From contig PFOK01000062.1 of NCBI GenBank assembly GCA_002792495.1, positions 1 through 40,972 of the forward strand: DNA of 40,972 nt. Direction: 5' to 3'. Position 1 is the stretch's first letter, and each line of letters starts with the position of its first letter. Below the pieces are notes generated by a model. The model was given only the letters and a program-made list of their open reading frames with translations, was not told the DNA's origin and did not search any database. The DNA comes from Candidatus Peregrinibacteria bacterium CG_4_10_14_0_2_um_filter_43_11 (lineage in GTDB: Bacteria; Patescibacteriota; Gracilibacteria; UM-FILTER-43-11). This document shows, one piece after another, positions 1,973-39,922 of the stretch. The position numbers and the translations under genes were made by a program.

Positions 1973-3604
1973 TTAGTAAACTTCGTTCAAATAACACGAT
2001 TCACAATAAATTATTTCGGGACGATCTGGAGAATAAGTGGTTTGAATTTCCGACTGGCATTTGGCGCATTTTCGCGCATAAAGCATATGGGGATTTTGTA
2101 CCTTAAGGCGATCCATGTGACGGGTCTCAAAATGGCGGTGTGGGATGGGGAGATTCATTTTTTTGTAAAATGCCAGTTCTTGCGGAATGATCCGGTAATT
2201 TTTTCCGATGACTTCACAACTTAAGATGGCCTCTGTGATAGCTTCTTTTACGTCATGGATGTTATCGGGGATCGTATAGGTTTGATTCTGGAACTCTTTC
2301 GGATCTTCTTCCTTCCAATTCCAGCCTTTCTTTTGTACTTCTTCTCGCGAGAGCGGGTAATAATTGTTGGCTACGGTTTCGTTGTATGCAAAAGGGGATA
2401 GGGTTTGCGGAAAAAATTCACCCCATTCCCCCGTACTTTTCATATGTTGCACCATCCGTTCTGCCATCCGTTCATATTCCTCTTTGGAATATTGTTTGTT
2501 TAAAATACAGTATGATTTTCGGTTCAACCCCACACAACCGAACATGTGATTTGAATTGCTACAAAGGAAGTTGTAAAAACTGTCGTGACAATTGATCATC
2601 ATGGTGCAGAAGGCGGTGTTGTAAAGCTCCATTGAACTGGCGACTTCGTAAATCACTTCTCCCCATCCGAATGAACTCATGTCCATACCATTTTTTATTT
2701 TAAATCCAATGTATCCGTATTTTATTTCTTCCGCTGTTTCGAATAAGTAGCCTTCCTGCACATTTTTACAATTTCTTAAGTAGTCACCGGTGCTATTTTG
2801 ACAATTGATCACCTGAACCGCTTTGTGTGGGTATTTTAAAAAGTGTTGTCTTGCTTTTGCTTCAACTCGTTTCATGTTTTCAAAACTTCCAGAAATTTGT
2901 GCTGTTCGTTTTTCATATTCCTTTTTTTCCAGAGGCTCATTGAAAAAATAATATTTTTTATGTTTGAGTCCAAAACAACCAAAGCAATACTCACATCCCG
3001 TACATTCTTCGCAAAACATACAATTGGCACAATCCACACAATCCCTCAGTTTTATCGATTGGTAGCAGTGATCACAATGGATACATTCGTAACATAATTC
3101 GGAGTAGGGGATCCAGTAACAATCCACATTGTTTTTCCCATAAAGGGAGTAGGTGCAGAAATAACAATCTTCATTGTAATGTCCTCCTGCATTGAGGTAG
3201 CAATTTTTATCATCCGTTTCGTGTTGTACAAATTCACTGTTTTGGTTGTTTTTTCCGAAAAGCGAAACCAGTCCACCTACTTTTAGTAATTCTCCGAATT
3301 GTTCAAAAAAAGGCCTGGTGAAGTCAAACTCACGACCATAATCCATTCCATTCCATTTATCCGACCACCAGCATTCCTGACACAGTACGTTCAGCTCTTT
3401 TTCGGAGGAATAGATAGAAACATGATCCTTTTTGCACAGATTGCATTTTCGCTTATATAAACTTCGTTCATTGCGCCAGACCAGCCGTCTTTGATCGCGG
3501 CATATTGGGCATAGTGTTGGTTCGGGAACTTTCATGCGTGCGTAAAATGCGCGGTCATCATGGGCAACTTCAAAGTCGATATGGCATTGTTTACACGTTT
3601 TCAT
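1973..3604 (-). CDS. Cysteine-rich multi-zinc-ribbon protein, paralog 2 of 3 (function unknown)
   Basis: This 543-aa ORF has the same architecture as 227..1882. The C-terminal 30 aa are nearly identical (RKCAKCQSEIQTTYSPDRPEIIYCESCY), and the DNA shares a 34-nt stretch with 2 mismatches (about 2039-2072 versus about 292-325). Confidence 0.85.
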   Translation of the reverse strand: MKTCKQCHIDFEVAHDDRAFYARMKVPEPTLCPICRDQRRLVWRNERSLYKRKCNLCKKDHVSIYSSEKELNVLCQECWWSDKWNGMDYGREFDFTRPFFEQFGELLKVGGLVSLFGKNNQNSEFVQHETDDKNCYLNAGGHYNEDCYFCTYSLYGKNNVDCYWIPYSELCYECIHCDHCYQSIKLRDCVDCANCMFCEECTGCEYCFGCFGLKHKKYYFFNEPLEKKEYEKRTAQISGSFENMKRVEAKARQHFLKYPHKAVQVINCQNSTGDYLRNCKNVQEGYLFETAEEIKYGYIGFKIKNGMDMSSFGWGEVIYEVASSMELYNTAFCTMMINCHDSFYNFLCSNSNHMFGCVGLNRKSYCILNKQYSKEEYERMAERMVQHMKSTGEWGEFFPQTLSPFAYNETVANNYYPLSREEVQKKGWNWKEEDPKEFQNQTYTIPDNIHDVKEAITEAILSCEVIGKNYRIIPQELAFYKKMNLPIPHRHFETRHMDRLKVQNPHMLYARKCAKCQSEIQTTYSPDRPEIIYCESCYLNEVY

Positions 3605-3612
3605 GGTTTTAG

Positions 3613-3640
3613 TTTATAACCAAATGCATGGATGGTTCAA
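3613..3640 (-). promoter_or_regulatory. Sigma70-like promoter TTGAAC-16-TATAAA for paralog 2, probably giving a leaderless mRNA
   Basis: The minus strand reads ttgaac catccatgcatttggt tataaa ctaaaacc ATG. The -10 element ends 8 nt before the start codon at 3604. Confidence 0.4.
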
Positions 3641-3663
3641 TGGATATTTTTTAATTCATTTTT

Positions 3664-3694
3664 AAAAACCCTCAACATTTCGTTGAGGGTTTTT
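3664..3694 (-). terminator. Rho-independent (bidirectional-type) terminator after pnp
   Basis: The hairpin aaaaaccctcaac / atttc / gttgagggttttt has a 10-bp GC-containing stem flanked by an A-run and a T-run. It lies 25 nt downstream of the pnp stop codon. Confidence 0.8.
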
Positions 3695-3718
3695 ATAGTT
3701 TATTGCATGTCCGACGTA

Positions 3719-5860
3719 TTATTTTGCTGGTGCGGTAGGCGCAGCTGGAGTGCCTCCCGGTTGAGGAACACCTTTCATGGTCAAACGGAAGCGGTTGTTT
3801 TGTGTGTCGATTTCTTTGAGGAGTACGTTTACGATCTGACCTTCTTTAAGGTGATCTTTCACGTCTTTCACAAAGCCATCGGTGATTTCCGATACATGCA
3901 CCATGCCTTCTTTGCCCGGCATGAATTCCACAAGAGCGCCGAATTCGAGTAGGCGGGTGATTTTGCAGTTCATGTAGGTTTTTCCGGCTTCGGGATCGGC
4001 TACAATCGCTTCTACCCAGGCTTTGGCTTTGGCACCGCCTTCCTCGCTTTTAGTCGTGATCACCACGGTTCCGTCATCATCGATATCGATTTGAACACCA
4101 CATTCATCAATGATCTTATTGATCACTTCACCTCCCGGTCCGATGATGAAACGGATTTTTTCGGGACTGACGTGTATGGTGATGAGTCGAGGGGCATACG
4201 GTGACATTTCGGTGCGTGGCGCGCTGATCACTTTGTCCATCGCGTCCAGAATTTCCATGCGGCCTTTATGGGCGCGATCCAAGGCTTCTACAAAAATATT
4301 GTCAGGCAATCCCTTGATTTTAATGTCCATTTGAATGGCGGTGATCCCGTCACGGGTTCCAGTGACTTTAAAATCCATATCGCCTCCGAAATCCTCTTCG
4401 TCTTGTAAATCAGTCAGGATTTTATACTGGCTAGGGTCATCGTGATTGGTCATCAATCCCATTGCGATACCTCCGACCGCTTTTTTAATGGGAACACCGG
4501 CATCCATGAGTGCCAAACTGCATCCACAAGTGGCGGCCATGGAACTGCTTCCGTTGGAACCGAGGATTTCGGTTACCGTACGGATGGTGTAAGGGAAGTC
4601 TTCTTTGTTGGGAAGAACCGGCATGATGGCACGTTCTGCCAAGGCTCCGTGTCCTATTTCCCGATTACCGGTGAATAAACGGTTACTCACTTCACCTACT
4701 GAGAAAGGGGGGAAATTGTAATGATGGAAATAGTGTTTTTTGCTTTCACCTTCGATTCCATCTATGATCTGCGCGTCCCCGGGTGAGCCGAGTGTACACG
4801 TGCTAAGCCCCTGAGTTTCACCGCGCTGAAAGAGCCCGGAGCCGTGAGTGCGTGGCAAGAGTCCGACTTCCACATAAAGCGGGCGAATGGTATCGATTTT
4901 ACGGTCTTTGATGCGGCGTTCTTTTTCGAGGATGTTCTTTCGGACGGTTTCTTTGATCAATTTGTCGATGGCTTTGCCAACCTGTTTTAGCTCGTCTTCT
5001 TCCACCTTGTCTTCAAAGTGTTTTTCGGCTTCTTTGGTGAGCTGACGGATGAATTCAAAACGTTCCCCTTTGTTCATGTCGCTATATAGCGCTTCTTCCG
5101 CTTTGGCCGGATAGTTTGCTTTTACGTAATCGACGATTTCCTGATTTTTTTCCGGAGGAGTGAATTCGATTTTTGCGCTTCCAATTTCATCTTTTATTTC
5201 TTTGATGAATTGAGCGATTTTTTGTCCCCATTTTTTACCGAAGGCGATGGCTTCCAACATTTTGGTTTCCGGAACTTCGTTAGCGCCAGCTTCGATCATG
5301 ATGACGTTAGAAAGATCGCTTGAAACGATTAAATCCAGGTCGGAACGTGTGCGCGCCTCTTTGGTAGGGTTGAGCACAAATTCGTTATTGATGAGCCCCA
5401 CGCGAACGGTGGCTGTTGGCCCCTCAAAAGGGATATCGGAAATGCTGAGAGCAACAGAAGCGGCAATGGCCGCGATCATGTCGTGTTCATTTTCCTGATC
5501 ATAGGAAAGGGTAGTGAGCATCACTTGAATATCACGATAGAATTCTTTCGGAAAAAGCGGTCTTAGTGTACGATCGATCACGCGAGCCATCAAAACCTTG
5601 TCGTCGCTGGGGCGTGTTTCACGTTTGATGAAGCGACTGCCCTTGATCATGCCACTGGCATACATTTTTTCCTGATAATTGACACTGAGTGGTAAAAAAT
5701 CCACACCGGCACGAGCTTCTTTTGCCAGAGCGGCCGTTGCTAAAATAACGGTGTCACCATAACGAACCGTACAGCTTCCGTTACATTGCTGAGCCAGTTT
5801 ACCGGTTTCAACAATGAATTCACCATTGCCTATCGGTAATTTAAATATCTTTGATTCCAT
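3719..5860 (-). CDS. pnp: Polyribonucleotide nucleotidyltransferase (PNPase)
   Basis: This 713-aa ORF shows two RNase PH-like halves, a KH-like segment (IGPGGEVINKII) and a C-terminal S1 domain (GKTYMNCKITRLLEFGALVEF...GMVHVSEI). It sits in the classical position downstream of rpsO. Confidence 0.95.
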   Translation of the reverse strand: MESKIFKLPIGNGEFIVETGKLAQQCNGSCTVRYGDTVILATAALAKEARAGVDFLPLSVNYQEKMYASGMIKGSRFIKRETRPSDDKVLMARVIDRTLRPLFPKEFYRDIQVMLTTLSYDQENEHDMIAAIAASVALSISDIPFEGPTATVRVGLINNEFVLNPTKEARTRSDLDLIVSSDLSNVIMIEAGANEVPETKMLEAIAFGKKWGQKIAQFIKEIKDEIGSAKIEFTPPEKNQEIVDYVKANYPAKAEEALYSDMNKGERFEFIRQLTKEAEKHFEDKVEEDELKQVGKAIDKLIKETVRKNILEKERRIKDRKIDTIRPLYVEVGLLPRTHGSGLFQRGETQGLSTCTLGSPGDAQIIDGIEGESKKHYFHHYNFPPFSVGEVSNRLFTGNREIGHGALAERAIMPVLPNKEDFPYTIRTVTEILGSNGSSSMAATCGCSLALMDAGVPIKKAVGGIAMGLMTNHDDPSQYKILTDLQDEEDFGGDMDFKVTGTRDGITAIQMDIKIKGLPDNIFVEALDRAHKGRMEILDAMDKVISAPRTEMSPYAPRLITIHVSPEKIRFIIGPGGEVINKIIDECGVQIDIDDDGTVVITTKSEEGGAKAKAWVEAIVADPEAGKTYMNCKITRLLEFGALVEFMPGKEGMVHVSEITDGFVKDVKDHLKEGQIVNVLLKEIDTQNNRFRLTMKGVPQPGGTPAAPTAPAK

Positions 5861-7304: not shown

Positions 7305-7715
7305 TTAGTTTTTTTTCTTCTTTTTTGGAAGATATTTAACTTTAATATCCACTTTTTTAACGGTATGGAGACGTTTTGCATATTCTTTTTTTGCGTTGAG
7401 TGAAAAGCGAATAATGGAAATCAATAATGCGAACATGAATAAAAACCACCAGATCCTCATTGAAAAATAGGGGATTCCCGCCTCTCGGAACAATAGAAGT
7501 ACCAATAGGATGGTTCCATATCGTTGAAGGAGTTTTGGAGCACTGCGTATGATTTTTTTGGCAATGGGGTTCTTTAGGTATTTTTTTCTATAAATGGTTA
7601 TGGCTAATCCTCCTAAAATAAAGAGGATCACGATCGCCAGTGTGAATTTTGTGTATTGAAAATTGGGATCGGGACGAGGGGTGAAATAATATTGTAAGGT
7701 GAGAATTCGATTCAT
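7305..7715 (-). CDS. Small integral membrane protein (3 predicted TM helices, Lys-rich tail), function unknown
   Basis: This 136-aa ORF has hydrophobic segments FTLAIVILFILGGLAITIY, YGTILLVLLLF and IWWFLFMFALLISII. It is tightly packed in the minus-strand block, with an 11-nt gap to corA. Confidence 0.6.
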   Translation of the reverse strand: MNRILTLQYYFTPRPDPNFQYTKFTLAIVILFILGGLAITIYRKKYLKNPIAKKIIRSAPKLLQRYGTILLVLLLFREAGIPYFSMRIWWFLFMFALLISIIRFSLNAKKEYAKRLHTVKKVDIKVKYLPKKKKKN

Positions 7716-7748: not shown

Positions 7749-8102
7749 TTATTTTTTAGTGCTCTTTACGGGTTTTTTCTTGCTTTTTCCGATTTTTACC
7801 CCTTCTTCCTCTTCAATGGCCTCCTTGAGCAATCGTCGTTCCATTTCCTGATAATACCGCTCCAATAATGTTTGCCCCGGACGAATGATTAAGTAAAGCA
7901 AAATGCCCAAAATGGGAATGGCAATGTTGAGCAGGATCGCGAAAGTTTGGAAAAACAAGCTGTTGCTACGACTGATGGAATCCCGCGTGACCCAGATGAT
8001 GATCGAAAGCCAAAGCAGGCCCACATAGACGATTCCCGCCATTTGAAACATCTGAAAAGAGGAGGATTGCGCGAATTCGATTATTTTATTCAGATAAGGC
8101 AT
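7749..8102 (-). CDS. Small membrane protein, PLDc_N-like (cardiolipin-synthase N-terminal type) domain
   Basis: LWLSIIIWVTRDSISRSNS...ILLNIAIPILGILLYLIIRPG fits the pattern W..D...R...P.LG..(L)Y as I remember it for the PLD-nuclease N-terminal membrane domain. The tail is charged. Confidence 0.5.
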   Translation of the reverse strand: MPYLNKIIEFAQSSSFQMFQMAGIVYVGLLWLSIIIWVTRDSISRSNSLFFQTFAILLNIAIPILGILLYLIIRPGQTLLERYYQEMERRLLKEAIEEEEGVKIGKSKKKPVKSTKK

Positions 8103-8137: not shown

Positions 8138-8884
8138 TTACTCTTTTATGAGGTGTTTTTTGTGTGAACAGTGGATGAAAAGAACAAAAGCCACTGCGGT
8201 AAAAATCAGAAAATTGACCTTGTGACAACTCGAAGGGACACCGTGAAGAAAATCAATGCCGAACGCACTCACAGAGTATAGCATAATCGCCAGACTTCCG
8301 GCCATTCCGGATAAATGTGTTTTTCGGTTGTATTTCATCACGTAACTTAAAATGAGGAATGTTGCCAGTGCCGAATACAGTTGTGCGGGATGGAGGGGGG
8401 TATTTACCAAAGGAATATTCATTGCGTCGAAAGAGATTCCCCAGGGCATTGTTGTGGGGGTTCCGTAATAACTTCCGTTAAAAAAATGACCCACGTGAAT
8501 TAAGATGAGCCCCACGAGCCCGGAAAGACTGATGGCATCGAGCCATAAGTAAAAATCTTCTTCGGATTTTCGGCTCAGTAAATAAAGGACGATGATCAAG
8601 CCGTAAAATGCCCCGAAAGCACTGAGTTTTAGATCCCAAATATAAAATGCCTGCAGTATGTTTTTTATGTAGTGGCTATTATTTTCAATGACATAAAACA
8701 CCCTACCTCCCAGGGCGCTTGCCAGGATCATGAAAATGAAATTGTTTGCCAGAAACGAAACATTCATTTTGTTGCGGCTGATGTAGCGCAATAAAAAAAG
8801 CATGCCCAGCAAAAAAGCCAATGCCAAAAAAAGATTGAATGTGTGAATGGTTATTGGCCCATATTGAAAGAGGACTTCATACAT
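8138..8884 (-). CDS. lgt: Prolipoprotein diacylglyceryl transferase
   Basis: This 248-aa polytopic membrane protein carries GGRVFYV, GHFFNGSYYGTPTTMPWGISF and HPAQLYSA, which match the Lgt signatures (G.R.GN..N.E..G...PW and HPTQLYE). Confidence 0.8.
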   Translation of the reverse strand: MYEVLFQYGPITIHTFNLFLALAFLLGMLFLLRYISRNKMNVSFLANNFIFMILASALGGRVFYVIENNSHYIKNILQAFYIWDLKLSAFGAFYGLIIVLYLLSRKSEEDFYLWLDAISLSGLVGLILIHVGHFFNGSYYGTPTTMPWGISFDAMNIPLVNTPLHPAQLYSALATFLILSYVMKYNRKTHLSGMAGSLAIMLYSVSAFGIDFLHGVPSSCHKVNFLIFTAVAFVLFIHCSHKKHLIKE

Positions 8885-8978
8885 TTTTTTGGCAACTTAT
8901 AGTGTTGATATTATTTTTTGGAAACTTTCGGGCATTATTTTAGGGGATTTATAAAAAATGGGCAACCTTATTCATGTA

Positions 8979-11900
8979 TTATCGTATCACTTCAGTGGAT
9001 TTTTGTTCGCTGTTCACACTGAATCCCGGTGGAGGCGTGCGATGGTCGGGTTCAATGAAGAAGGCATCTAACGATTTGGATTGTATTTTATCTATTTTCC
9101 CTTCCGGAGTGAGGGTGACTGTTGTTTGGAGAGGGCCAACAGAACAGATATCGCTTTCGCAAATTCCTCCTCCGCTGAACCGGCTGCCGCTTTCGGCAAG
9201 ATCACCCGACACATTGAATCGCCTGATGAAATCCATGTCATAGCGCTGAGCACATTCGTATTGAGTCGCCTTCCCGCACGACACGCCTTCGGGGATGATT
9301 TTATTTTTGGTTCCCCCAATCGTATTGCGAGAAGCTATATTGCCTTGCCAGTACAGTTGGTTTTTAAGTTCCTGGGAGTTCAGATTGTTTTCTCCATAAT
9401 AATAATCGGTGCCGTTAGGAGAGCTCATTAAACTTCCTTCGGCAAACACCATGCCCGCCAGATTTGTTGGATTGGAATCAATAAAAATATTGGCTCCTTC
9501 TCCCCGGTCTTTGAGCAGAATAATGCCGAAGCTGTGGCCTTCACTTTCGTAAGCAATGTTGTTTTTGATGACTAAATTCAATCCTCCTTTTAGGATGAGT
9601 GTCAGGCGATAGCCATCCGGGATCTGAATTGTTTTGTCCGACCCGTCTCCCAAAATGAGAGATTGCGTGGAATCACCTTCGTAAAAAAGAACAACCGTTT
9701 TTTCATTTTCATCGGTTTTGACACACGATCCGGATGTTTTGAACGTCCAGTGATTTCCTTTGGCGCGCAAAGGGGACATGCCGGCTGTACAAGAGGGGAG
9801 ATTCAGGGTTATTTGAGAAACATTTCGGCGCATTTGTTCACTCAGCTTCTGCAGGCCTGTGACATTGACCACATCCAGGTTTTTTCCATCGTCATAAATG
9901 GTTTCTCCCGAGCCTATCCCCGTGAAGTTCACTCCGGTCATTTTTACTTTTGTACCGGAAACCAAATTGGCTGTCGGTTTATAAATCGTGAACTGAGGTT
10001 GGTCCGGAAAACGATAAGTGATGATCTGATGAATGTTCAGATTTAGAGAATCACTATTAAAATTAGGAGGGGTAAACAGAAAAGCGGGTGTGAACCCGAT
10101 GGTTTGTTTTGACGCTAAACTGCCTGCTCCAATGGCCATCGGTGTCGGGTCATTGCGATCGATGTGATTTTTGGGGATGTCATAAATCGCATCCACTTCA
10201 TAGCTACCATCTATTTCTAAAACAGAAGGCTCAACATCGTTTTTTAAAATGGAGTAGCTATTGTGAAATAGGCTGGTGAGTTCCGTTATTGCGCTTGAAT
10301 CTGACCATTCACCTGAAAAATTTTCATAATGTGCTCCGGAAAGCGGGGGAGCGGGAGGCAACCATCCCCATACTAAGTCGGAACTGAGCGCGTGCTGAAT
10401 TTTTTGAGTCTCGAGTAATGCCGCACCCGATCCCGTGAATTCAAAAACGGTGTCATAATCGATTGAATCCAAAATCGCATTGATGCTTTTATTTTTGAAA
10501 TCAAATTCCAGCTGAGCCGGTGTTCCATCGATGACTTCACCGGTCAATCCTCCTGTTTTGATTTGACCGTTGAAAGCGATCAATCCCGGTTCGAATGAAA
10601 GGAGGGATTGATTGCCGGTGTTTTCGAAAAGATCGTTGATTTTTTTGGCGGATATCGGTTTTTGATTGATGCTGACAGCAGGAATTTCATCTTCCTGTAT
10701 ATCGATTTTAAACCCCTTGAATTCTATTGTATTGTTTTGTGTCGTCGGCGCAAAAGAAGTGATATGAACCGGATATGCTTCTGATTCCGGAATAATACCG
10801 AGGCTACTTGTTTCGCCCGGTGTGTCCAAAAAAGATTGATTGACCTTTACGGGAGAGCCGGGAGTGTTGTAAACCGAATCGTAACGCATTTGATTTTTAA
10901 AAAGTCCGTTGATCGTTATTTTACGTTTTGGACAAGTGGCGCAATCGATGGCGACAATGGGGTTTTTGGCAATGTCGTTTAGTGCCAAGTTGTAAGTGAT
11001 CGGGTCTTTTCCATCGGCAACCCCGTTGTTTTTTGTGAAACTGATTTTGGATTTGTCTTTGTTGTAACTTCCTGCTCGGACAAAAAAATGAATGGGAGGG
11101 GAATAGCCCTGATCGCCGCTTGGCGTTCCTCCGATGGTGAGCTTCATTCCCGCTTTGTTGATGATGCTACCGGTTAATGTGTATTGGCAGTATCCCAGTG
11201 GAGGCTTTTTGATAAGCCCGATCATGGATATGCTTGCGGAGATCAATTTTTGATCAAAACCCAGGCTGATCATTCCAGGGGCATTGCATGCCGCAAAGTT
11301 GTTTCCGGGTTCTTTTTCCACGGTAATAAAAGAATCGTTACGGATCCCTGATTCGGGATCATCGGCTAGCTCCGCCCATGTGATGGTTCCTATTTCACTT
11401 TCGTTTAAAAACCACGCGTTTTCTTTTGCCAAAAGAACAGGGGGGGTTAAATCTGGAATCCAATCGGTGGAAGTGCCAAACGCGATGGTGTCTTCTTTCC
11501 CTTTTTCAAACTTGATCCATCCGAGTGTTTTACTCCACGCGTAACCGTGAAACATCTGTCCGTTTCCGTCCGGGTTTGGCCCCACCCACACCCCCCAGTC
11601 GTCTTGTGTTTGATTGGCGGTTCCGGTGGTTGTTCCCGCGGAGGACGCACTTAATTTGATCCAGCCGGCGTACTCACTCCAAAAATATCCGGTCAGCCTT
11701 CCGTTGAATTGAATCCGCGCGAAATCCGATTCAGGAAAGTCTACTTTAGTCAAAGCGTTTTGAATTTGCTGACCTTCCAAAATTGTCCATCCTATTTTGT
11801 CGTTCCACAAAAATCCGGTGAGTGGGCAATAATCAGACCCGCACTTGCCCTTGTCATTAAAGTCATAAATATTGGAAGTGAATGCGGAAGACCCCTGTTT

Positions 11901-12095
11901 TGCAGAATCGCCGGCATAAAAATCATTCTGAGTGCCTTCATACCCTTCGGGACGTATCGCCGTTACATAATCAAAATGCAATAAGCCTATCTTTTCCGCG
12001 TAAGCGGTGCCCGTGATGGGTGCTTTGGCATAGCTGACATTCGCGAATGCCATTGTGCTTAAAAACCCGATGAGAAGCCATTGTTTTAATTTCAT
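8979..12095 (-). CDS. Large secreted/surface protein (1038 aa) with N-terminal G-[YF]-x-W-x(4)-GW repeats; function unknown
   Basis: The signal peptide is MKLKQWLLIGFLSTMAFANVSYA. Repeats are TGTAYAEKIGLLHF, TGFLWNDKIGWTIL, TGYFWSEYAGWIKL and HGYAWSKTLGWIKF. The remainder is long, Gly/Thr/Asn-rich and probably beta-rich. The ATG overlaps the stop of the upstream gene (ATGA at 12092-12095). Confidence 0.8.
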   Translation of the reverse strand: MKLKQWLLIGFLSTMAFANVSYAKAPITGTAYAEKIGLLHFDYVTAIRPEGYEGTQNDFYAGDSAKQGSSAFTSNIYDFNDKGKCGSDYCPLTGFLWNDKIGWTILEGQQIQNALTKVDFPESDFARIQFNGRLTGYFWSEYAGWIKLSASSAGTTTGTANQTQDDWGVWVGPNPDGNGQMFHGYAWSKTLGWIKFEKGKEDTIAFGTSTDWIPDLTPPVLLAKENAWFLNESEIGTITWAELADDPESGIRNDSFITVEKEPGNNFAACNAPGMISLGFDQKLISASISMIGLIKKPPLGYCQYTLTGSIINKAGMKLTIGGTPSGDQGYSPPIHFFVRAGSYNKDKSKISFTKNNGVADGKDPITYNLALNDIAKNPIVAIDCATCPKRKITINGLFKNQMRYDSVYNTPGSPVKVNQSFLDTPGETSSLGIIPESEAYPVHITSFAPTTQNNTIEFKGFKIDIQEDEIPAVSINQKPISAKKINDLFENTGNQSLLSFEPGLIAFNGQIKTGGLTGEVIDGTPAQLEFDFKNKSINAILDSIDYDTVFEFTGSGAALLETQKIQHALSSDLVWGWLPPAPPLSGAHYENFSGEWSDSSAITELTSLFHNSYSILKNDVEPSVLEIDGSYEVDAIYDIPKNHIDRNDPTPMAIGAGSLASKQTIGFTPAFLFTPPNFNSDSLNLNIHQIITYRFPDQPQFTIYKPTANLVSGTKVKMTGVNFTGIGSGETIYDDGKNLDVVNVTGLQKLSEQMRRNVSQITLNLPSCTAGMSPLRAKGNHWTFKTSGSCVKTDENEKTVVLFYEGDSTQSLILGDGSDKTIQIPDGYRLTLILKGGLNLVIKNNIAYESEGHSFGIILLKDRGEGANIFIDSNPTNLAGMVFAEGSLMSSPNGTDYYYGENNLNSQELKNQLYWQGNIASRNTIGGTKNKIIPEGVSCGKATQYECAQRYDMDFIRRFNVSGDLAESGSRFSGGGICESDICSVGPLQTTVTLTPEGKIDKIQSKSLDAFFIEPDHRTPPPGFSVNSEQKSTEVIR

Positions 12096-13105
12096 TGGAG
12101 ATGATTGATACAGCTATTTTTTAAAGAGAGGGTGGTGATTTTTTCACACGAAGCGATGTCTTTTTTGGCGATGGCCTGCTTTAAATAGAAACGATTCAGA
12201 TTTTCGCCCTGAACCTGCAGACATTCGCTTCTTTTCTGATCATTCTGAATCGTGCCACAATAATTCAAATCCTTTTTCTCAAGGGTTAAATCAAAGTTGA
12301 CTTCGTCCCGGCAGTTCTTTTTTTCTTCGCCTTCTAACGATTCGCAGTCGTTCAGCAGTTCCGGGCTACTTTTGCCGACCTGGGGCATTTGTTCTTTATC
12401 AAACTCGGTCACTTTGATGTTTTGGGTCACTGTTTGATTACAATTTTCTTTTAGGGCGCTATTTGTGATTTCATCACAGAATTTTGAGTTCAGTGTTTCG
12501 ATGCCACTTGAAAAAGAAGTGTTGTCCAGACAGCCTTTTTTAAGAATCGAATCCTGAATGCTCTCGCACCGGGTTTTGTTTTTTGGAGTGTAGGTGAACA
12601 TGGCGCCGATTCGGTCTGTACAATTTTGTCGCAAAGCCGGCTCCATGATCTTTTGGCATATTCCCATGTCTATTTCACTGATCGCACGATTATAATAAAC
12701 CTGATTGAAGCACGTTTCGTGCTGCGTGGTGTTTTTTAAGATGGCGCATGTGTTTTCGTTTTCTTCTTTAATCGCCAACGCAAACCATGTGTTTTCGATG
12801 CAGTTTTGTTTGAGTTCGCTATCAAATTCAATGGTTTCACAGGCTTCCGGAGTTCCCTGCCTGAGTGCTTCATTCAAACGGACATTGTCCCGCTCTCTTT
12901 TTTCCTCTTCGGTCAGCTCAGGAGTCGCGAATTTTTTTCCATCTTTTTTTTCGGATTCACTTGTGGTCTGTTTTTCACTTGGAATGTTTTTTTGACTATG
13001 GCTTTGCAAAAATAACAGCACTCCGAATATCATCATGATCACTATAAAAAAGATGATCCAGCTCAGTATTCCTCCTTTTTGGTTTATTCTTGATTTTTTT
13101 CGCAT
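12092..13105 (-). CDS. N-terminally membrane-anchored protein with eight Cys-x(11-12)-Cys repeats; function unknown
   Basis: A TM anchor (ILSWIIFFIVIMMIFGVLLFL) and a charged linker are followed by 16 Cys residues in 8 regularly spaced pairs, for example ACETIEFDSELKQNC, TCAILKNTTQHETC, ICQKIMEPALRQNC and SCEKITTLSLKNSC. Confidence 0.75.
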   Translation of the reverse strand: MRKKSRINQKGGILSWIIFFIVIMMIFGVLLFLQSHSQKNIPSEKQTTSESEKKDGKKFATPELTEEEKRERDNVRLNEALRQGTPEACETIEFDSELKQNCIENTWFALAIKEENENTCAILKNTTQHETCFNQVYYNRAISEIDMGICQKIMEPALRQNCTDRIGAMFTYTPKNKTRCESIQDSILKKGCLDNTSFSSGIETLNSKFCDEITNSALKENCNQTVTQNIKVTEFDKEQMPQVGKSSPELLNDCESLEGEEKKNCRDEVNFDLTLEKKDLNYCGTIQNDQKRSECLQVQGENLNRFYLKQAIAKKDIASCEKITTLSLKNSCINHLQ

Positions 13106-13113
13106 TTCAACAC

Positions 13114-14592
13114 TTAAAAATTAAAGATGAGTAAAACGAATAATCCGTATCCAAAAAAGAACAGAAAAAGAGAGCCGATGAAATTTTGTCGGAACGACCG
13201 GTTTTTGATTTTTAAAATCAAGTGACTGAGCAACAGAAATAAGGTGATGTTGATGATGAGAGGGGATTCCAGGGTTTTGAGCACAAAAGTGCCGGGGAGT
13301 CCTATGTTTTTTTCGATTGAAAAATCCACCAGAAAGAAGTAGATGATGTAAAAAAACAGCAACCAGCTTACAAAGCTATCCACTTCCACAAAAAATTCCG
13401 TAAAATCATGTCGTTTTTTTGGGGGTCTTTGAGGTGTTTCCTGTTCTGCTTTCTGCCCTGTTTCCTCCCGTAGGGGCGTGTCACTTTCTTTTAAGTTTAT
13501 TCCGAGTGTCTTTTTTTCTCTCCATTGCTTCCATAGCTGTATCAATTCCTCTTTTCGTTTGGATTTAATGATCTTGCCGGCCGATAAATAACTCCTTAAT
13601 TTTTTGAGTATTTCAATCCATTTTGGTGATCCCCCTGAGGAAGTGGGAGCGTTTTTGGTGTCCAATTCTTCAATAACCGCTTTTATTCCCGCCTGTTCTT
13701 TGGATAATTTTTGAGCGAGGACGGTGCCTTCGTGTTGCAAGGAAGAGATAGTTTGCCTGCCTTTTAAAAGTCCGAATTGTTTTTTGATCCGATTGAATAT
13801 TCCTTTTATCTGCCCCGCTTTTTCGTTGGCTGGGGGCTGTTGAAAAATGTCATTGCCCGTATCCATCTCTTCGATCGGTGCAATGTCGTTTGCGTAAGAT
13901 GTTTTGCTGACATCGTATTCCTCCGGGTTTTTGGGGTTCTGAATGAGCTCCAGCAAGGTACGGCTGACTTCCGCGATGTGCTTTGCATTGTTGCTCGTGC
14001 GGATTCTTTCCAGTTCATCGATTTTTCTTTTCATTTCGTTCATTTGCTCCGCGCTGAACAAAAGGCCATGCGTGCTGATGATCTTTTTGGTGATTTCGAT
14101 TATTTTATCGATTTCGGACACCAGTGCCGGGTTGTTTTCGCTTTCCTCTTTCTCCATATATTCCGTTTTTTCCCGCGGGGTGGCCGTTTTTTCTTCTTTG
14201 AATTGTTTTTCGAATAAAATCAATTTCTGTTCACTGCCTTTGATTTCCGCTTCATTCGCTTTTTCCGGATAGAGCGCGAAAACATTGAATTGATATTCCG
14301 TTTTTAATCGTTTGTAAGCTTCGTAATCGTTTTTCGCGTCAATCGTCCCCTCAATGGATTTTTTATCGTGATCGCTTGCTCTGAAGAAAAAGGTTTGAAT
14401 GCCTTCCTGTTTCTTTGATTTTTCTTCCGTTGTTTTTTTGCTGCGGTATTCTTCTTCCGAAATCTCGTCTATAGCAATAATCGAAAGCTGCATTTTATGC
14501 AATTCTTCCTGGGCGTCGTTCAGGGATAGGGCTTCGAGAGCACCATCGACTTTTTGACTGTTCTGTGTGAGGGCGGTGTATTTAAATTTCAT
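13114..14592 (-). CDS. Membrane protein with two tandem PilC/GspF-N-terminus-like repeats, a long charged coiled region and 3 C-terminal TM helices
   Basis: The ORF track gives 13114..14649. I prefer the ATG at 14592 (MKFKYTALTQ...) because a TGCTAAAAT extended -10 (14630-14638, minus strand) overlaps the upstream ATG. The two motifs are FKYTALTQNSQKVDGALEALSLNDAQEELHKMQLSIIAI and FFFRASDHDKKSIEGTIDAKNDYEAYKRLKTEYQFNVFAL. Confidence 0.7.
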   Translation of the reverse strand: MKFKYTALTQNSQKVDGALEALSLNDAQEELHKMQLSIIAIDEISEEEYRSKKTTEEKSKKQEGIQTFFFRASDHDKKSIEGTIDAKNDYEAYKRLKTEYQFNVFALYPEKANEAEIKGSEQKLILFEKQFKEEKTATPREKTEYMEKEESENNPALVSEIDKIIEITKKIISTHGLLFSAEQMNEMKRKIDELERIRTSNNAKHIAEVSRTLLELIQNPKNPEEYDVSKTSYANDIAPIEEMDTGNDIFQQPPANEKAGQIKGIFNRIKKQFGLLKGRQTISSLQHEGTVLAQKLSKEQAGIKAVIEELDTKNAPTSSGGSPKWIEILKKLRSYLSAGKIIKSKRKEELIQLWKQWREKKTLGINLKESDTPLREETGQKAEQETPQRPPKKRHDFTEFFVEVDSFVSWLLFFYIIYFFLVDFSIEKNIGLPGTFVLKTLESPLIINITLFLLLSHLILKIKNRSFRQNFIGSLFLFFFGYGLFVLLIFNF

Positions 14593-14738
14593 TTTAGTCT
14601 GACTTTTGTTTGTGTCTTCATTTTGATTTATTTTAGCATGAATAATCAAATAGCAAAATCAAGAAAATGACGAAACCGGATTATGCTCCCGGTTGTTTTT
14701 GAGATATATTGTTTGTAAGTTTATTATTGAATGATTCT

Positions 14739-16924: not shown

Positions 16925-19900
16925 TTATTTTGGCGGAACCAGGGTTTTGATCTGTGTGAGCAGTTCTTTGTCGGAAAATCGTGAGCTCGCGAATATGGTT
17001 TGGATGATCAAATCCATGTTATCAAACACGTCATTCAAGCTGTTGATGGTTCTCCAATGTGTGGCGCCTTCCGGATAGTTCGCCTGCAAATGCGCGACAA
17101 TTTGTTGAGCCAGAGTGTGTTGGTTGGTCGATTCATCCCTCTTGGCACTTTCGGTATCCCGTAGCATTCCGAAAAGTGTTCCATCAAGCTTGTTCATAAA
17201 GTCATGCATTTTATTACGATGCTGTTGAACCGTCCATTCACCGTGATGTCCCACCCCGGCTTCACGGGCGATGGCGTTTAAAATGTTCGGGTTTCCTCTT
17301 GTGTACGGAGCCGATCCGTTTTCACGCAAGTATGCCACATTATCTACAATGCCATCCGCAACAGCCACCCACGCGACTTGTCGCGCGAATTCTTTGCGGA
17401 AGTTTATTTTTTCCGCCGCTTGTGCGTTTTCTTCAAACCACTGCAAGGCTCCCACGTACGCGTTTTCAATACCGGTGTCTTTGGCTTCCTCCTGTCCGGA
17501 ACGCCCCTGAAGATAACGTTTGGCCGTGTGTCCATCGCCCATGGCGGCAATACTGCGTCCCCAATCATGATCCCAACCGCGTTCGGATACGGATTTACGC
17601 ACACGCTGGATGGTCATTGTGTCATTCTGTACCTGAGTCCAGTAGAAGTTCTGGAATTCTTTGCCCGGTTTCCCTTTTTTAAAATCGTCTTTAAAATAGG
17701 TTTCACAATAATCTTTATAATCTTTGGCGCTTAGTGGCGGTCTTTTGCTATAAATCCACTGCGTTGCCGGCCAGGTATTCAGATTTTTATCCAGCACAAG
17801 TCCTCTATCCTGTGTCAATAATCCTGTGGCCATGCCTGCCATGAGATAAAAGAAAACTCCTTCCGCGTAACATTTCCCGTTCTTAATACTGTATTCCAAT
17901 CCGGATTCATATTCCTGAGGATCCACGTTTTGACCGTTCATGTGCATATTGAGCAGCTGTTCCAGTCGTTCCGTGATCTGATCCTGAATGCTGTCGTAGG
18001 TGGCTTCAAATTTCTTTTTCTGTCCTTCATATGATTCATGGTTTTTACTCTCCAGTGATAAAAACTCATCGTAATCCCAAATTTGCCCGGTGGCACTGTG
18101 CAATTTTTGACGCAAAAGCGGCGGGTTGTGCAACAGTACCGGATCGTCCGGTGTCAAATGGGTTACATTCTGCAGTTTATTGAGTACTTTCCAGAGGCTT
18201 GCATCACGCCAGTCAATACGGCCTTTGTCGGCTAATATTCTTAAAATGGCTTTTACCTGATCCTGATTGGGATCAATGCTGTTTGCCGCTTTTTTTAAAA
18301 GATTTTTAAGTGCCCAGGCATCCATTGAGCTATACCGGTTTTTCCATTCATCCACTTCTTCCTGTTCCGCTTTTTCTTGTCGCGCGGTGGCTTCGCTGGC
18401 CAGAGTTCCCGCGAAGGGGATGGTACTGAACAAAGCCTGTCCCATTCGGGCGGCGTGATCGTTTTGTTTGCGCTTATGGCGACGTTGGAAAAACTCTTTG
18501 ACCTGAGCTCCCACCTGAATCATATCGCCGACTGCCAAAAAGGAAGTGCAGTTCCAGAGTTGTCGGAAGGGCGTGATTTTTTTGTTCTTGATGTGCATGG
18601 CGGCTTCCGCGAGTTTTGGGGTCATTTCCTGTAAATCCTTGTTTACCTTCTTGATGCGTTCTTCTACTTCTTCCGCTGAATATCCGTTTGATGTGCTTCT
18701 GTAATCTTCATTGAGTTCGCGGGTTCTTTCGTTGTATTTGTTCATCAAGTGCAACAAATCACTTGCCCCCGGTAAATAACCGATGTATTCGGAGCTTCCG
18801 ATCTCTTTTATGATTGCTTTTGATTTGTTGATTTCTTCTTCAAAAGTGGTTGGGGATTTATTGCCCACCACTTCGGTGCCGCCTCCGCCGCCTTCTTCCG
18901 ACGCTTTGGAGCCACCTCCCCCCATGCTGTCATACCCATGGATTTTTTCTTCAATATCCCCGGCAGACATTCCTGTGTCCGCAAGGGCGAGTCCTGCCAT
19001 GAGCTTGCTCAGTTTGTCCGCCGGGGTTCCCGGTTTTATGTTTTGGCTTCTAAAATCATTTTGCATGGCCCAGAGTTCTCCGGTCATGTCTTCATCGCTC
19101 CAATCGTCCGCGGTGTAAGGCCCTTTGTATCCTTCCGGGTAACGGTTAGGGTCATTTAATTTGGACGGTCTTTTGTCGGGAAAGGTTTCCACAAAAGCAT
19201 GTCGGATCTCCTCCCATTTTCCGCCGGTTTTATAGCGGTTGACCTGATCCCTTTGGAGATTTGCATCATGATCGAATTCCACATGGCGTAATTCGTGGGT
19301 GATCTGCGCCTTAAAATTTGCCAATGCCGTAGGATCATCGTTGTTTATGCCTTCGCGATCCACGATGATTTTCCATTCATCCCCGAATTCATAAAACACC
19401 ATATTTCCGCCCGTGTGATCCCTTAAATTACGAACACCGCCTTTTCGGAGTGGGTAATGCTCGAATGTATTTTGGTCCACATATTCTACATGTTCAGCAA
19501 AATTCGCTTGTAATATTTTTTGGATTTCACCTGCACTATTTACTGTGGCGAGTTGTCGTATAACGGCAGCCGCTTTTATAGCGGTTTCGGATGATTTCGG
19601 ATCCAGACTTTCCTTTGCGTTATCCCTATCTTCCATCAGACCGAGATCGTTTTTAAGGGTGTCGAGCTCTACCAAAATAGCTTGCAGTTCTTTTGGTTTT
19701 GGGGTATCGCCCAGAGTCCTGATTCTTACCGTTAAGGCATTCAGGTATGTTGCTTTTTCGGAACCCGGTTTATTCCAGTCCGGAAGGCCATTTGTCCATT
19801 GAATGTCTTTGGCAAAATCGGAAGGTTTTCTTCCTTTTTCGCGCGCCAATAATGTTTTGATCGTGTCGTTGGCGACAGGTGGGGGAGTGACTCCCGCGTC

Positions 19901-21349
19901 TTTTAGCTTTTGAATGCGGTCTTTTCGCAATTGCTTCTGAATAGCCGCGATGGTTTCCGGAGTTAGGGTCGCGATTTTTTGCCGGATCGCCTCAAAACTT
20001 TGAGTAATCACTTGTTTTACTTCGGCGGTGTTGCTTTTTATGTAGTCCAAATTCGGCATGGGCGAAGATTGGTCGCTTAACGCGCTATCCAGATCCGCTT
20101 CGGCTTTGTCGAGTCTTTGATCCATGTTTTCCAGAGCCGTGTCTATATTTTCCCCTTTCACTCCATTGAAAAGAGCAAGGAACGCCTGTTTTGACTGAAA
20201 CGCTTTTTCAAAGACACTACGGTGTTTTTCACTGAAGCGGGCTTTATTGGTTTCAAATCGATTTTTTAACGCTTCATAACGATTGCCTAAATAAACGCGC
20301 ATTTGTTCCATTCTCATTTCGCGTGCTTCGAGCAACATGTTGGCAATCTGCATTTTTGCCTCATAAGGCAGTTTATCGGCAAGGCTTACGAGGTTCTTTT
20401 CTTCTATTGCTCTTACATGCCTATGGGTTTGTCTTGCCTGCACATCCGGACTCTCTTGTCCTTCAGTGAGTTTTAGATAAGCCCTGTAATTTTCCTTCGT
20501 TTCATCACTATCGGCGACTCCTCTTGTTTCTAAAAATTGCTCATAACCGGGTATTGAGCCGGTATTTCTTTGACGTTCGTCGAATCCCTCCCTTTCTGCC
20601 TGCGATTGCTTTGCACGCCGGCGAATCCATCCGCTTTCATCCGTTTGCATTGATTCCAGCATTCGATTGATTGCCTCAATTTCTGTTGTATTCTTTGCTT
20701 GTTTGGCTATTTTTAGTCGGGTTTTTAATACTTCTTTTTCCTTTTTGTAATCGGCTTCCGCTCCTTTCAGATACATTGCCCCTTCCATCTTGAAAGTGGT
20801 TTGCATTGCCACTTTGTCGGCTGTGTCCATTCGTGCGTTTGCGATTTTGATTTGTCCTTCCAGTTTTTCGTCAAAAAACGCACTGATGTCCGTTTCGAAT
20901 AAATCACTCAAGTCCACCGGGCTTATATTGGCCGTATCGTTCAGTCTGGCTAAAAAATGGGTGTAAGACGCCGCCTCAAGACGTGCGTTCCGGAATTCTT
21001 CCGCCGTACGAACGGGAGCTTTGAGTGACTCCATTTTAGTTTCGCAGACGGTTTTTTTACGGGTGATTGTCTGTACATTTTTTTCAGTTCCCGGGGCAAT
21101 CAGCTTTCCGATTTTATGACGTTTTCTTTCGGCTTCAATCCGGTGCTCCAATTGTCTTATTTTTCCCCCTAAAATGTCTTGTCCGTTGGTGTACTTACTG
21201 GGCAATTCGGGTTTGTCAAGGGCATCGGCCGTTTGTTGCCATCCCGGTTTGAATCGGGAAAAAAGGCCTTTCGCGTCGCGAAAAATCAGTCGGTTTTCAC
21301 CGTTTTTTTCAAAAGACCCGCTTTGTTCGTTTTTAAAATGCTTCAACAT
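16925..21349 (-). CDS. Giant orphan protein (1474 aa), no signal peptide or TM helix seen; single HExxH motif; function unknown
   Basis: The 4.4-kb ORF is uninterrupted. The N-terminal ~650 aa are highly charged and probably helical or coiled. ITHELRHVEFDH falls at about residue 685. A Gly-rich linker (MGGGGSKASEEGGGGGT) precedes a C-terminal ~600 aa globular-looking region. I saw no nucleotide-binding or other catalytic motif. Confidence 0.85.
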   Translation of the reverse strand: MLKHFKNEQSGSFEKNGENRLIFRDAKGLFSRFKPGWQQTADALDKPELPSKYTNGQDILGGKIRQLEHRIEAERKRHKIGKLIAPGTEKNVQTITRKKTVCETKMESLKAPVRTAEEFRNARLEAASYTHFLARLNDTANISPVDLSDLFETDISAFFDEKLEGQIKIANARMDTADKVAMQTTFKMEGAMYLKGAEADYKKEKEVLKTRLKIAKQAKNTTEIEAINRMLESMQTDESGWIRRRAKQSQAEREGFDERQRNTGSIPGYEQFLETRGVADSDETKENYRAYLKLTEGQESPDVQARQTHRHVRAIEEKNLVSLADKLPYEAKMQIANMLLEAREMRMEQMRVYLGNRYEALKNRFETNKARFSEKHRSVFEKAFQSKQAFLALFNGVKGENIDTALENMDQRLDKAEADLDSALSDQSSPMPNLDYIKSNTAEVKQVITQSFEAIRQKIATLTPETIAAIQKQLRKDRIQKLKDAGVTPPPVANDTIKTLLAREKGRKPSDFAKDIQWTNGLPDWNKPGSEKATYLNALTVRIRTLGDTPKPKELQAILVELDTLKNDLGLMEDRDNAKESLDPKSSETAIKAAAVIRQLATVNSAGEIQKILQANFAEHVEYVDQNTFEHYPLRKGGVRNLRDHTGGNMVFYEFGDEWKIIVDREGINNDDPTALANFKAQITHELRHVEFDHDANLQRDQVNRYKTGGKWEEIRHAFVETFPDKRPSKLNDPNRYPEGYKGPYTADDWSDEDMTGELWAMQNDFRSQNIKPGTPADKLSKLMAGLALADTGMSAGDIEEKIHGYDSMGGGGSKASEEGGGGGTEVVGNKSPTTFEEEINKSKAIIKEIGSSEYIGYLPGASDLLHLMNKYNERTRELNEDYRSTSNGYSAEEVEERIKKVNKDLQEMTPKLAEAAMHIKNKKITPFRQLWNCTSFLAVGDMIQVGAQVKEFFQRRHKRKQNDHAARMGQALFSTIPFAGTLASEATARQEKAEQEEVDEWKNRYSSMDAWALKNLLKKAANSIDPNQDQVKAILRILADKGRIDWRDASLWKVLNKLQNVTHLTPDDPVLLHNPPLLRQKLHSATGQIWDYDEFLSLESKNHESYEGQKKKFEATYDSIQDQITERLEQLLNMHMNGQNVDPQEYESGLEYSIKNGKCYAEGVFFYLMAGMATGLLTQDRGLVLDKNLNTWPATQWIYSKRPPLSAKDYKDYCETYFKDDFKKGKPGKEFQNFYWTQVQNDTMTIQRVRKSVSERGWDHDWGRSIAAMGDGHTAKRYLQGRSGQEEAKDTGIENAYVGALQWFEENAQAAEKINFRKEFARQVAWVAVADGIVDNVAYLRENGSAPYTRGNPNILNAIAREAGVGHHGEWTVQQHRNKMHDFMNKLDGTLFGMLRDTESAKRDESTNQHTLAQQIVAHLQANYPEGATHWRTINSLNDVFDNMDLIIQTIFASSRFSDKELLTQIKTLVPPK

Positions 21350-38452: not shown

Positions 38453-38887
38453 ATGCAAGCAATGATTAAAAAATTATTCATCACCACTCTTCTGATTTTT
38501 AGCTTATGTAACGTAGCTTTGCCCATGTTTTCGGCCGTACCCATTGCTGTGGCACAGGAATCCGCGGACAGTTTGGATAGCCCTGATTTCATGTTCAACT
38601 TAAGGGCGATCACGCATGAAGACATCAAAGAAGAAAAATTCATCAAAGGAGGAATCAATTTTATTTTCGAACGTGTGATTACGGTCATGGCAATCACGGT
38701 CAGCTCCGCGGCAGTATTGATGATCACGGTGGGGGGTTTTATGATTTTGGCTTCCGGAGGACGTCAACAATGGGTAGATAATGGAAAAACATTCATTTTC
38801 AAGTCCATTATTGGCCTGGCGGTAACGCTTGGGGCTTATATTTTTGTCACGACAGTTCAGGTGCTCATTAACAATATTTATGGTTAA
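38453..38887 (+). CDS. TrbC/VirB2-like (type IV secretion-type) pilin, paralog 1
   Basis: The signal peptide is MQAMIKKLFITTLLIFSLCNVALPMFSAVPIAVA|Q. The C-terminal hairpin consists of a hydrophobic helix (AAVLMITVGGFMILASGG), a charged loop (RQQWVDNGK), and a second helix (SIIGLAVTLGAYIFV). Confidence 0.75.
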   Translation: MQAMIKKLFITTLLIFSLCNVALPMFSAVPIAVAQESADSLDSPDFMFNLRAITHEDIKEEKFIKGGINFIFERVITVMAITVSSAAVLMITVGGFMILASGGRQQWVDNGKTFIFKSIIGLAVTLGAYIFVTTVQVLINNIYG

Positions 38888-39527: not shown

Positions 39528-39921
39528 CACACTTAAAGCCCGGCTGACATTGCTCGTATTCGCGTTTCTTCAAATGGGTGCCAAAGCGCATGCCATTACT
39601 CTGGGAAATCGTGAAGTCGAATTGAGTTCGCCTGTAGGCAGTGATATTTTGCCGGGCGGTGGTATTCATCAGGACGAAATCCGTACGAGTTTTGTTTTTA
39701 GCAACCTTATTCCTTTTGTGATCAAATACGCGATCCGTCTCGCTGTCATTCTTGCGGTAGCCGCTTTGATCGTGGGGGGGTTTTTGTTCATCACTTCTTA
39801 CGGAGACACGGAAAAACGCACCACGGCCCAGAAAACCATCATGTGGGCATTGATCGGTCTCATCATCGTCATGACCGCGTTTGGAATCGTCACCATTATC
39901 ACTAACATCAGCTTCGTTTAA
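39517..39921 (+). CDS. TrbC/VirB2-like pilin, paralog 3
   Basis: The TTG start overlaps the previous gene by 11 nt. The signal peptide is MRFNTLKARLTLLVFAFLQMGAKAHA|I. The C-terminus is AVAALIVGGFLFITSYGDTEKRTTAQKTIMWALIGLIIVMTAFGIV. Confidence 0.7.
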   Translation: MRFNTLKARLTLLVFAFLQMGAKAHAITLGNREVELSSPVGSDILPGGGIHQDEIRTSFVFSNLIPFVIKYAIRLAVILAVAALIVGGFLFITSYGDTEKRTTAQKTIMWALIGLIIVMTAFGIVTIITNISFV

Positions 39922-39922
39922 T

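Follow-up and report, generated by a model that had tools for sequence, protein, structure and literature searches.

We analyzed three consecutive genes, designated A, B and C, on the minus strand of contig PFOK01000062.1 from Candidatus Peregrinibacteria bacterium CG_4_10_14_0_2_um_filter_43_11. The whole stretch of 40,972 nucleotides (nt) is referred to as the window, and labels such as L030 or P0018 are ours for loci and proteins. A first-pass annotation had read the three genes as a translationally coupled module forming one self-contained apparatus for surface display or attachment. The three open reading frames (ORFs; 13114-14649, 12092-13105 and 8979-12095) were confirmed, and so were the two junctions described between them. 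Read on the minus strand, the stop codon of A is followed by 8 nt (GTGTTGAA) and the ATG of B, and the stop codon of B and the start codon of C share an ATGA. An lgt homologue is indeed the next gene, but it does not follow C directly since a gap of 93 nt separates them. The extent given for A also required a correction. The ORF as listed reaches a TTG at 14649 and encodes 511 amino acids (aa), but the start codon is almost certainly the ATG at 14592, because all 79 A homologues begin with MKFxYTAL and because P0018, a database protein showing 100% identity to A along the entire query, has a length of 492 aa. The features of the locus are given in Table 1.

Table 1 Genes and intergenic region of the A-B-C locus, with coordinates in the window.
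Feature	Coordinates	Strand	Description
Gene A	13114..14592	-	492-aa membrane protein: two GspF/PilC-type N-domains (T2SSF_N), lysine- and glutamate-rich (K/E-rich) helical region, bundle of three transmembrane segments
Gene B	12092..13105	-	337 aa: one N-terminal membrane anchor (N-in), charged linker, eight Cys pairs
Gene C	8979..12095	-	1038-aa Sec-exported all-beta multidomain protein
Lgt-like gene	8138..8884	-	248 aa; Pfam LGT 4e-34
p117	7749..8102	-	small protein with two transmembrane segments
p136	7305..7715	-	small protein with three transmembrane segments
Intergenic region A/priA (divergent)	14593..14708	.	presumed promoter region of the minus-strand genes

Loci for comparison were collected from the homologues of C, the homologues of A, a scan of GTDB species genomes with an A profile (25 loci) and a metagenome scan with a C profile (18 full-length orthologues), and were mapped with tblastn. 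The homologues derive from metagenome-assembled genomes (MAGs) of Candidatus Peregrinibacteria/Peribacteria. Nearly everywhere the gene order is the same: a gene encoding a protein of 1330-1474 aa, priA on the opposite strand, A, B, C, the Lgt-like gene, p117, p136, (corA), rpsO and pnp. Separation of the three genes in related genomes, which would have spoken against the first-pass annotation, was not observed: in each of the ~33 independent loci of close relatives examined, the genes lie side by side on one strand. Every full-length C orthologue with sufficient upstream flank has B immediately upstream. The Lgt-like gene always lies downstream of A in the relatives, and p117 is kept downstream of the Lgt-like gene in the clade of the window. 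Junction lengths were compared in ~40 loci, some of which are duplicated between the collections. For the B-C gap the median is 17 nt, and 11 of the 40 loci, including several with ATGA overlaps, do not exceed 10 nt. In contrast, the median A-B gap is ~80 nt and none of the 40 loci has a gap of 10 nt or less. The B-C junction is tight and the A-B junction loose in these relatives, and an A-B spacing as short as 8 nt is particular to the genome analyzed here. The A-B junction also contains insertions in two relatives: 2.4 kb in L021, where the insert codes for a membrane protein of 586 aa whose C-terminus is rich in Gly (8365-10125), and ~0.95 kb in L043 (about 3060-4094).

We also found loci that carry only a part of this gene set. 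In L030 and L032, A (24-29% identity, same architecture) is found in a context that differs from that of the window, with trpS and pyrG upstream and greA, rpoD and dnaG downstream. At these loci A is followed by the Lgt-like gene within 1-2 nt and by p136 within 2-5 nt, neither B nor C is present, and p136 is thus kept after the Lgt-like gene even in distant loci devoid of B and C. In L033, where synteny is of the window type, a shortened A retaining one small domain, a short linker and an intact membrane domain is located directly before the Lgt-like gene, and B-C is missing from the locus. The reverse situation was observed in L112, a Gracilibacteria genome (GCA_028713325.1) using genetic code 25, in which UGA is a sense codon. 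There a B-like gene is directly followed by a C-like gene encoding 810 aa (9095-11527), the pair is located between rsmE and a ClpC-like gene, and neither A nor lgt is found at the locus. The L112 C-like protein matches C in blastp (6e-15 and 3e-9) and has the repeat module, RYDLNYFR and PPPGF in common with it. L053 contains a C-like gene in a downstream context of the L112 type, on a contig that starts too close to this gene to show a B gene. In L113, an unassigned metagenome contig, a B-like gene and a C-like gene encoding 983 aa (9070-12021) are separated by 22 nt, again with no A or lgt at the locus, and hhalign aligned this C-like protein to the C profile with E = 8.6e-58. In all, B and C are kept together across Peregrinibacteria, one Gracilibacteria genome and one unassigned contig, in three different contexts.

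Because B-C occurs without A and lgt, A-Lgt occurs without B-C, the A-B junction is loose and the B-C junction is tight, we favour, with moderate confidence, a reading in which the locus comprises two conserved units, B and C being nested within a unit made of A, the Lgt-like gene and p136, in one probable operon, and does not encode a three-part machine.

Two further observations were made at the L112, L053 and L113 loci. A divergent 455-aa membrane/zinc-ribbon protein encoded upstream of B-C in L113 was considered as a possible A analogue and rejected (hhalign probability 5.8%); this protein and the p117 orthologues have a generic double zinc ribbon alone in common. Between the C-like and ClpC-like genes, L112 (11586-12134) and L053 (2622-2903) encode a small secreted Cys-containing protein that has no counterpart in the window.

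The first-pass annotation had described in A two copies of the motif that opens PilC/GspF platform proteins and had proposed that only the platform N-domain was borrowed. Both points were verified. Of the 401 positions in the NCBIfam GspF model TIGR02120, the N-terminus of A aligns with 1-52 alone (E = 1.3e-4), the same positions are matched by 38 of the 38 aligned members of the A family (best 1e-7), and the precomputed PF28597 (T2SSF_N) domain is present on 77 of the 79 A homologues. An AlphaFold model built with 38 sequences, whose mean predicted local distance difference test score (pLDDT) is 79.5, folds residues 2-45 and residues 67-110 each into a beta-beta-alpha-beta unit, at pLDDT >90. 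These two small domains are related to each other (hhalign P = 2.5e-5), and a hidden Markov model of domain 1 scored a median of 7.1 bits on A domain-2 segments while the 95th percentile of shuffled segments was 0.8 bits. Long helices make up the rest of the model, in which prediction is poor for the K/E-rich middle and confident for the bundle of membrane helices at the C-terminus (399-492). The long charged region and the three transmembrane helices noted earlier were likewise recovered: an ELERIRTSNN motif is conserved in the long K/E-rich helical region, and the three hydrophobic segments are all C-terminal (residues 419-511 of the 511-aa ORF).

Beyond these small domains we detected no resemblance of A to platform proteins. 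No PF00482 T2SSF core domain was found in A at E <= 1 in Pfam, and neither single-sequence nor profile searches of the PDB with A gave a match. Foldseek comparison of the A model with the PDB gave no match at E < 0.01 (the best, at 0.014, being to ribosomal proteins) and no platform protein was among the 50 PDB matches listed. In Foldseek, the likeness of the small domain to the tiny alpha/beta proteins YkzG and p56 is only generic. The A profile gave no alignment with E. coli HofC, which is unhelpful as a comparator because its N-terminus is too diverged. A thus shares with the GspF/PilC/ComGB platform (PF00482; TIGR02120) its first ~50 residues, that is a small cytoplasmic domain ahead of membrane helices, but it has two of these domains in tandem and lacks the T2SSF helical-bundle domain, of which the platform has two. 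The topology also differs, since the transmembrane helices of platform proteins are interleaved (one after domain 1 and two at the end) whereas those of A are all C-terminal. Finally, A has no neighbouring gene for an ATPase, prepilin, peptidase or secretin, and its conserved partner is the Lgt-like gene. Assignment of A to the GspF/PilC family was therefore rejected on core domains, topology and gene partners, the N-terminal domain alone being in common. In A, these GspF-type small domains probably act as a module for interactions in the cytoplasm.

In agreement with the first-pass annotation, no ATPase, prepilin or secretin model matches A, B or C, and none of them is a recognisable enzyme. 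No match to a T2SSE ATPase, prepilin or prepilin-peptidase model was obtained among the window ORFs scanned, and the gene tables of the looked-up loci (10 kb on each side) contain no GspE/PilB ATPase, prepilin or prepilin peptidase. These results bear on the proposal of a single self-contained apparatus, in which A would be a cut-down platform coupling a cytoplasmic partner, for instance a PilB/GspE-type ATPase encoded elsewhere, to B-C. The adjacency of the three genes in the ~33 relatives, the 8-nt gap and the overlap seen in the window and the homology of the A N-domains to the platform N-terminus are all consistent with this proposal. However, B-C exists without A (L112 and L113) and A without B-C (L030, L032 and L033), the spacing of A and B in the 40 relatives never suggests coupling and admits insertions, A lacks the T2SSF core, and an ATPase gene is missing among the window ORFs scanned. 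We consider a single three-gene apparatus unlikely, and this part of the first-pass annotation was not supported.

Near its N-terminus B carries a single hydrophobic segment, with basic residues ahead of it. The membrane anchor and the eight Cys pairs had been correctly described, but the spacing within pairs is x10-x12 and not x11-12: the 16 Cys form eight pairs with successive within-pair spacings of 12, 11, 11, 11, 11, 10, 11 and 11, and the spacing between pairs is mostly 17 (31 and 24 also occur), giving a 30-residue repeat. All 16 Cys are invariant across nine orthologues. An exhaustive search of 1.84 billion cluster representatives with the B profile retrieved 1429 proteins at E <= 1e-3, of which 313 reached E <= 1e-10 and 44 reached E <= 1e-30. 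Lengths of 320-350 aa and the layout of B are seen in most of these relatives. The named ones, annotated as hypothetical proteins, come from Gracilibacteria and a 'Deltaproteobacteria' MAG, and like B they gave no Pfam family. One relative, P0152, has a lipobox-like N-terminus. The B-type C-x10-12-C repeat (12092-12870; proteins P0100-P0247) marks out a large family that lacks annotation. B could be fitted to no family in Pfam, NCBIfam or the PDB, the alignment members yield no recurring family, and no Sel1 or TPR Pfam match was found in the nine B orthologues or in six distant relatives. The repeats are presumed to form an extracytoplasmic, disulfide-stapled helical-repeat domain. By analogy, B would resemble the Helicobacter Hcp proteins, which we take to be Sel1-like, disulfide-stapled helical repeats, in having a regular short repeat with one Cys pair per unit outside the cytoplasm. 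It differs from Hcp/Sel1 in its 30-residue unit, in its C-x10-12-C spacing and in giving no Sel1/TPR Pfam match.

The length and the signal peptide assigned to C were confirmed. The protein begins with a Sec-type N-terminus (MKLKQWLLIGFLSTMAFANVSYA/KA), has no transmembrane segment and no lipobox, its first Cys being at residue 85, and contains 12 Cys spaced as six likely pairs. LPXTG-like motifs are absent from the last 60 residues of all 17 C homologues. The AlphaFold model of C (17 sequences, mean pLDDT 72.9) is all-beta and multidomain. C comprises the repeat module at ~90-215, whose three repeats fall within ~90-200, Ig (immunoglobulin)-like sandwiches at ~220-570, a beta-helix-like region at ~770-925 and a Cys-containing tail. 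The orthologues are 1038-1372 aa long with 29-42% identity. The C-terminus of the family (8979-9030) is strongly conserved and carries a polar PPPGF-x10-IR sequence, of which PPPGF is common to the C-family proteins and the -x10-IR continuation is found in the Peregrinibacteria orthologues. Because C has no sortase signal or hydrophobic anchor, this end may be a docking peptide.

Neither single-sequence nor profile searches gave a Pfam or PDB sequence match for C; a match to Pfam Big_1 (E 0.049) was under the family cut-off. When every member of the C alignment was scanned against Pfam and NCBIfam, no family recurred. Foldseek comparison of the C model with the PDB returned integrin legs, CfaB pilins, FdeC and the Ig arrays of intimin/invasin, and comparison with viral models returned Big-1 or Fn3 phage proteins. 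The matches to FdeC, intimin and InvD had E-values of 2e-6 to 1e-5 with a query-normalised TM-score of only ~0.13. C therefore resembles multi-Ig adhesins (intimin/invasin, FdeC, CFA/I pilins) in being exported, all-beta and predicted to contain several Ig-like sandwiches, but with TM-scores of ~0.1 and ~10% identity this is a generic fold likeness only. In contrast to these adhesins, C has no beta-barrel anchor, chaperone-usher genes, LPXTG motif or lipobox, whereas it has an additional unannotated N-terminal repeat, additional C-terminal domains and a Cys-repeat membrane partner. Surface display or attachment, which the first-pass annotation had proposed for the three proteins together, is plausible for C. 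None of the three proteins matched a characterised family in the profile searches or, for A and C, in Foldseek.

We also considered that C might act enzymatically outside the cell, say as a hydrolase or polysaccharide lyase of the beta-helix kind, with B as its chaperone or anchor. The beta-helix-like region of the AlphaFold model and a faint match of C to Pfam CEMIP_beta-hel (E 0.14) point in this direction. However, neither C nor one of its 16 homologues gave a significant enzyme family in Pfam, NCBIfam or the PDB, and the best 50 Foldseek matches per library are tandem Ig-like arrays with no enzymes among the matches listed. As generic Ig-like arrays alone were returned, the N-terminal module and the beta-helix region are not separately assessable by Foldseek. 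An enzymatic role of C is in our view highly improbable.

The repeats of C had been designated GW-type. C contains only three GW-containing repeats, at residues 94, 136 and 184, with a period of ~45 residues and the signature G-Y-x-W-S-x(3-4)-G-W-I-x-F, and no Pfam GW (PF13457) or SH3 match was found for C or its 16 homologues. The one feature they share with the Listeria GW modules of InlB and Ami, whose SH3-like fold comprises about 80 residues, is that a Gly-Trp dipeptide occurs within a module repeated in a surface protein. They are instead three repeats of a different module. In the metagenome scan (L052-L110) this YAWSENxGWIxF module (window ~11450-11830) opens many unrelated secreted proteins, where it co-occurs with SLH (L096), a prepilin N-methylation motif (L076 and L087), FG-GAP/Fn3 (L074) and CarboxypepD_reg. 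The copy of Pfam searched contains no model for it.

The distribution of this module is relevant to the possibility that B-C is a structural part of the envelope, such as an S-layer-like or wall-associated scaffold whose repeat module binds the cell's own wall polymers, and does not serve adhesion to other cells. The locus has a fixed place among housekeeping genes (priA, rpsO and pnp) in all the relatives, the module is combined with SLH in L096, and the window itself encodes a protein with M23 and SLH domains at 24569-26836, all of which would fit a structural role. Against it, C has no SLH or other known wall-binding domain, and the absence of B-C from the locus in L030, L032 and L033 indicates that the pair is not obviously essential. 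The variable length and low identity of the C orthologues are moreover typical of exposed, fast-evolving proteins. We regard this explanation as unlikely.

The product of the Lgt-like gene belongs to the same family as E. coli Lgt. Its match to Pfam LGT (PF01790) spans 213 residues and scores 118 bits, and it can be aligned with the E. coli Lgt structure 5azb (E 2e-12), but its score against NCBIfam TIGR00544 (89 bits) is under the equivalog cut-off of 118.9. At the positions of Y26, H103, R143, N146, E151 and R239 of E. coli Lgt, which according to published work are needed for its activity, the protein of the window has F, F, H, H, S and A. Most or all of 20 orthologues from related loci likewise depart from the canonical residues at these six positions, R239 being kept only in L032, whereas G104, G154 and mostly Y235 are retained. 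As the canonical catalytic residues are lost, the protein probably has a role other than standard prolipoprotein diacylglyceryl transfer, and this copy is, from its residues, probably not the housekeeping enzyme. A, B and C are not obvious substrates for it because none of them has a lipobox. Neither p117 nor p136 belongs to a significant family in our searches. The p117 orthologues are longer (164-186 aa) and end in a double zinc ribbon (Pfam DZR), as in L033 (9079-9627). The p117 of the window is without this ribbon and retains only the part with two transmembrane segments. At least four lgt copies per genome have been reported for Peribacteria (PMC4736985).

From these results a working model can be outlined for the two nested units. 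In the first unit, C would be exported by Sec, and the N-terminal helix of B would anchor it in the cytoplasmic membrane, with its disulfide-stapled domain of 30-residue repeats exposed outside the cell. The two proteins would be produced together, as suggested by the ATGA overlap here and by the short gaps in relatives, and B would tether the otherwise anchorless C as a cell-surface complex, possibly through the PPPGF...IR tail of C. B would perhaps hold the tail of C in the way in which helical-repeat proteins often bind extended peptides. With its repeat module, Ig-like and beta-helix-like domains facing outward, C would then be an adhesin or a protein binding the envelope in an episymbiotic bacterium from the candidate phyla radiation (CPR). 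An anchored surface complex is the most likely nature of B-C, which is possibly an adhesin. In the second unit, A, the Lgt-like protein and p136, together with p117 in the clade of the window, would form a set of integral membrane proteins to which A would supply two cytoplasmic GspF-N-type domains and in which the Lgt-fold partner may handle a lipid. That the second unit services the first in the clade of the window is possible but unsupported.

Several points weigh against this two-unit model. The block from priA to pnp is wholly syntenic in the clade of the window, so that adjacency within it says little about function. The 8-nt spacing between A and B here would fit a coupling of A with B-C. 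The absence of B-C in L030, L032 and L033 and that of A-Lgt in L112 and L113 were judged at the locus only. The word adhesin is, for C, a class guess because the Foldseek TM-scores are ~0.1 and the matches are to generic Ig-like repeats. Finally, gene structure, domain content, conservation and the separate distribution of the two units are established by the data, and the physical complex of B and C, the adhesin role of C, the co-transcription and any role of the second unit are what we infer from the comparisons above. A bolder version, in which A, the remodelled Lgt-like protein and p136 would constitute a new membrane machine, with A recruiting an ATPase of the PilB/GspE class, the Lgt fold handling a lipid or lipid-linked substrate, and B-C captured as a client in most lineages for an adhesin mounting that uses neither pilus nor secretin, appears very unlikely.

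The first-pass annotation had placed the start of a single transcript near 14623. Promoter-like and terminator-like matches in the A/priA intergenic region are not commoner than in shuffled sequence, so that no promoter is established and a start near 14623 is unsupported; the sole promoter-like match near this position overlaps the start codon. In the same region a 7-bp GC-containing hairpin followed by a T-run is found upstream of A on its own strand (minus strand, 14694-14674). The rest of the window is ordinary chromosome with, among others, pnp, corA, priA, PPDK, a recF-like gene, the M23 and SLH protein and two tRNAs. Convergent with priA, 16925-21349 on the minus strand encodes a 1474-aa protein, for which counterparts of 1330-1474 aa are found at the same position in nearly all the related loci; this protein has no Pfam or NCBIfam match, no transmembrane segment and no signal peptide. 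Two plus-strand ORFs, 38829-39527 and 39881-40570, encode a C-terminal T4SS_pilin domain (PF18895; E 1.3e-9 and 4.9e-4).

In the parts of the literature that we searched, no description of this locus was found. The Peribacteria genome paper mentions large Cys-rich extracellular proteins but not this locus (PMC4736985), and the passages searched of a Gracilibacteria metaproteome paper do not mention proteins of the A, B or C type (PMC11452946). The pairing of a platform-type small domain, in A, with a degenerate Lgt is unexpected.

Peregrinibacteria and Gracilibacteria are uncultivated and probably host-dependent CPR bacteria whose attachment to partner cells is largely unknown. The B-C pair, kept across both lineages in differing contexts, is a concrete candidate for a complex involved in attachment or in the envelope. 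Two widespread elements, the 30-residue Cys repeat of B and the YAWSExxGWIxF module, lack a model in the copy of Pfam that we searched. The strict linkage of A to the Lgt-like gene suggests that the GspF small domain may be a portable interaction module outside pilus systems, and that among the multiple copies of lgt noted in these genomes there may be some that do not encode enzymes for lipoprotein maturation.

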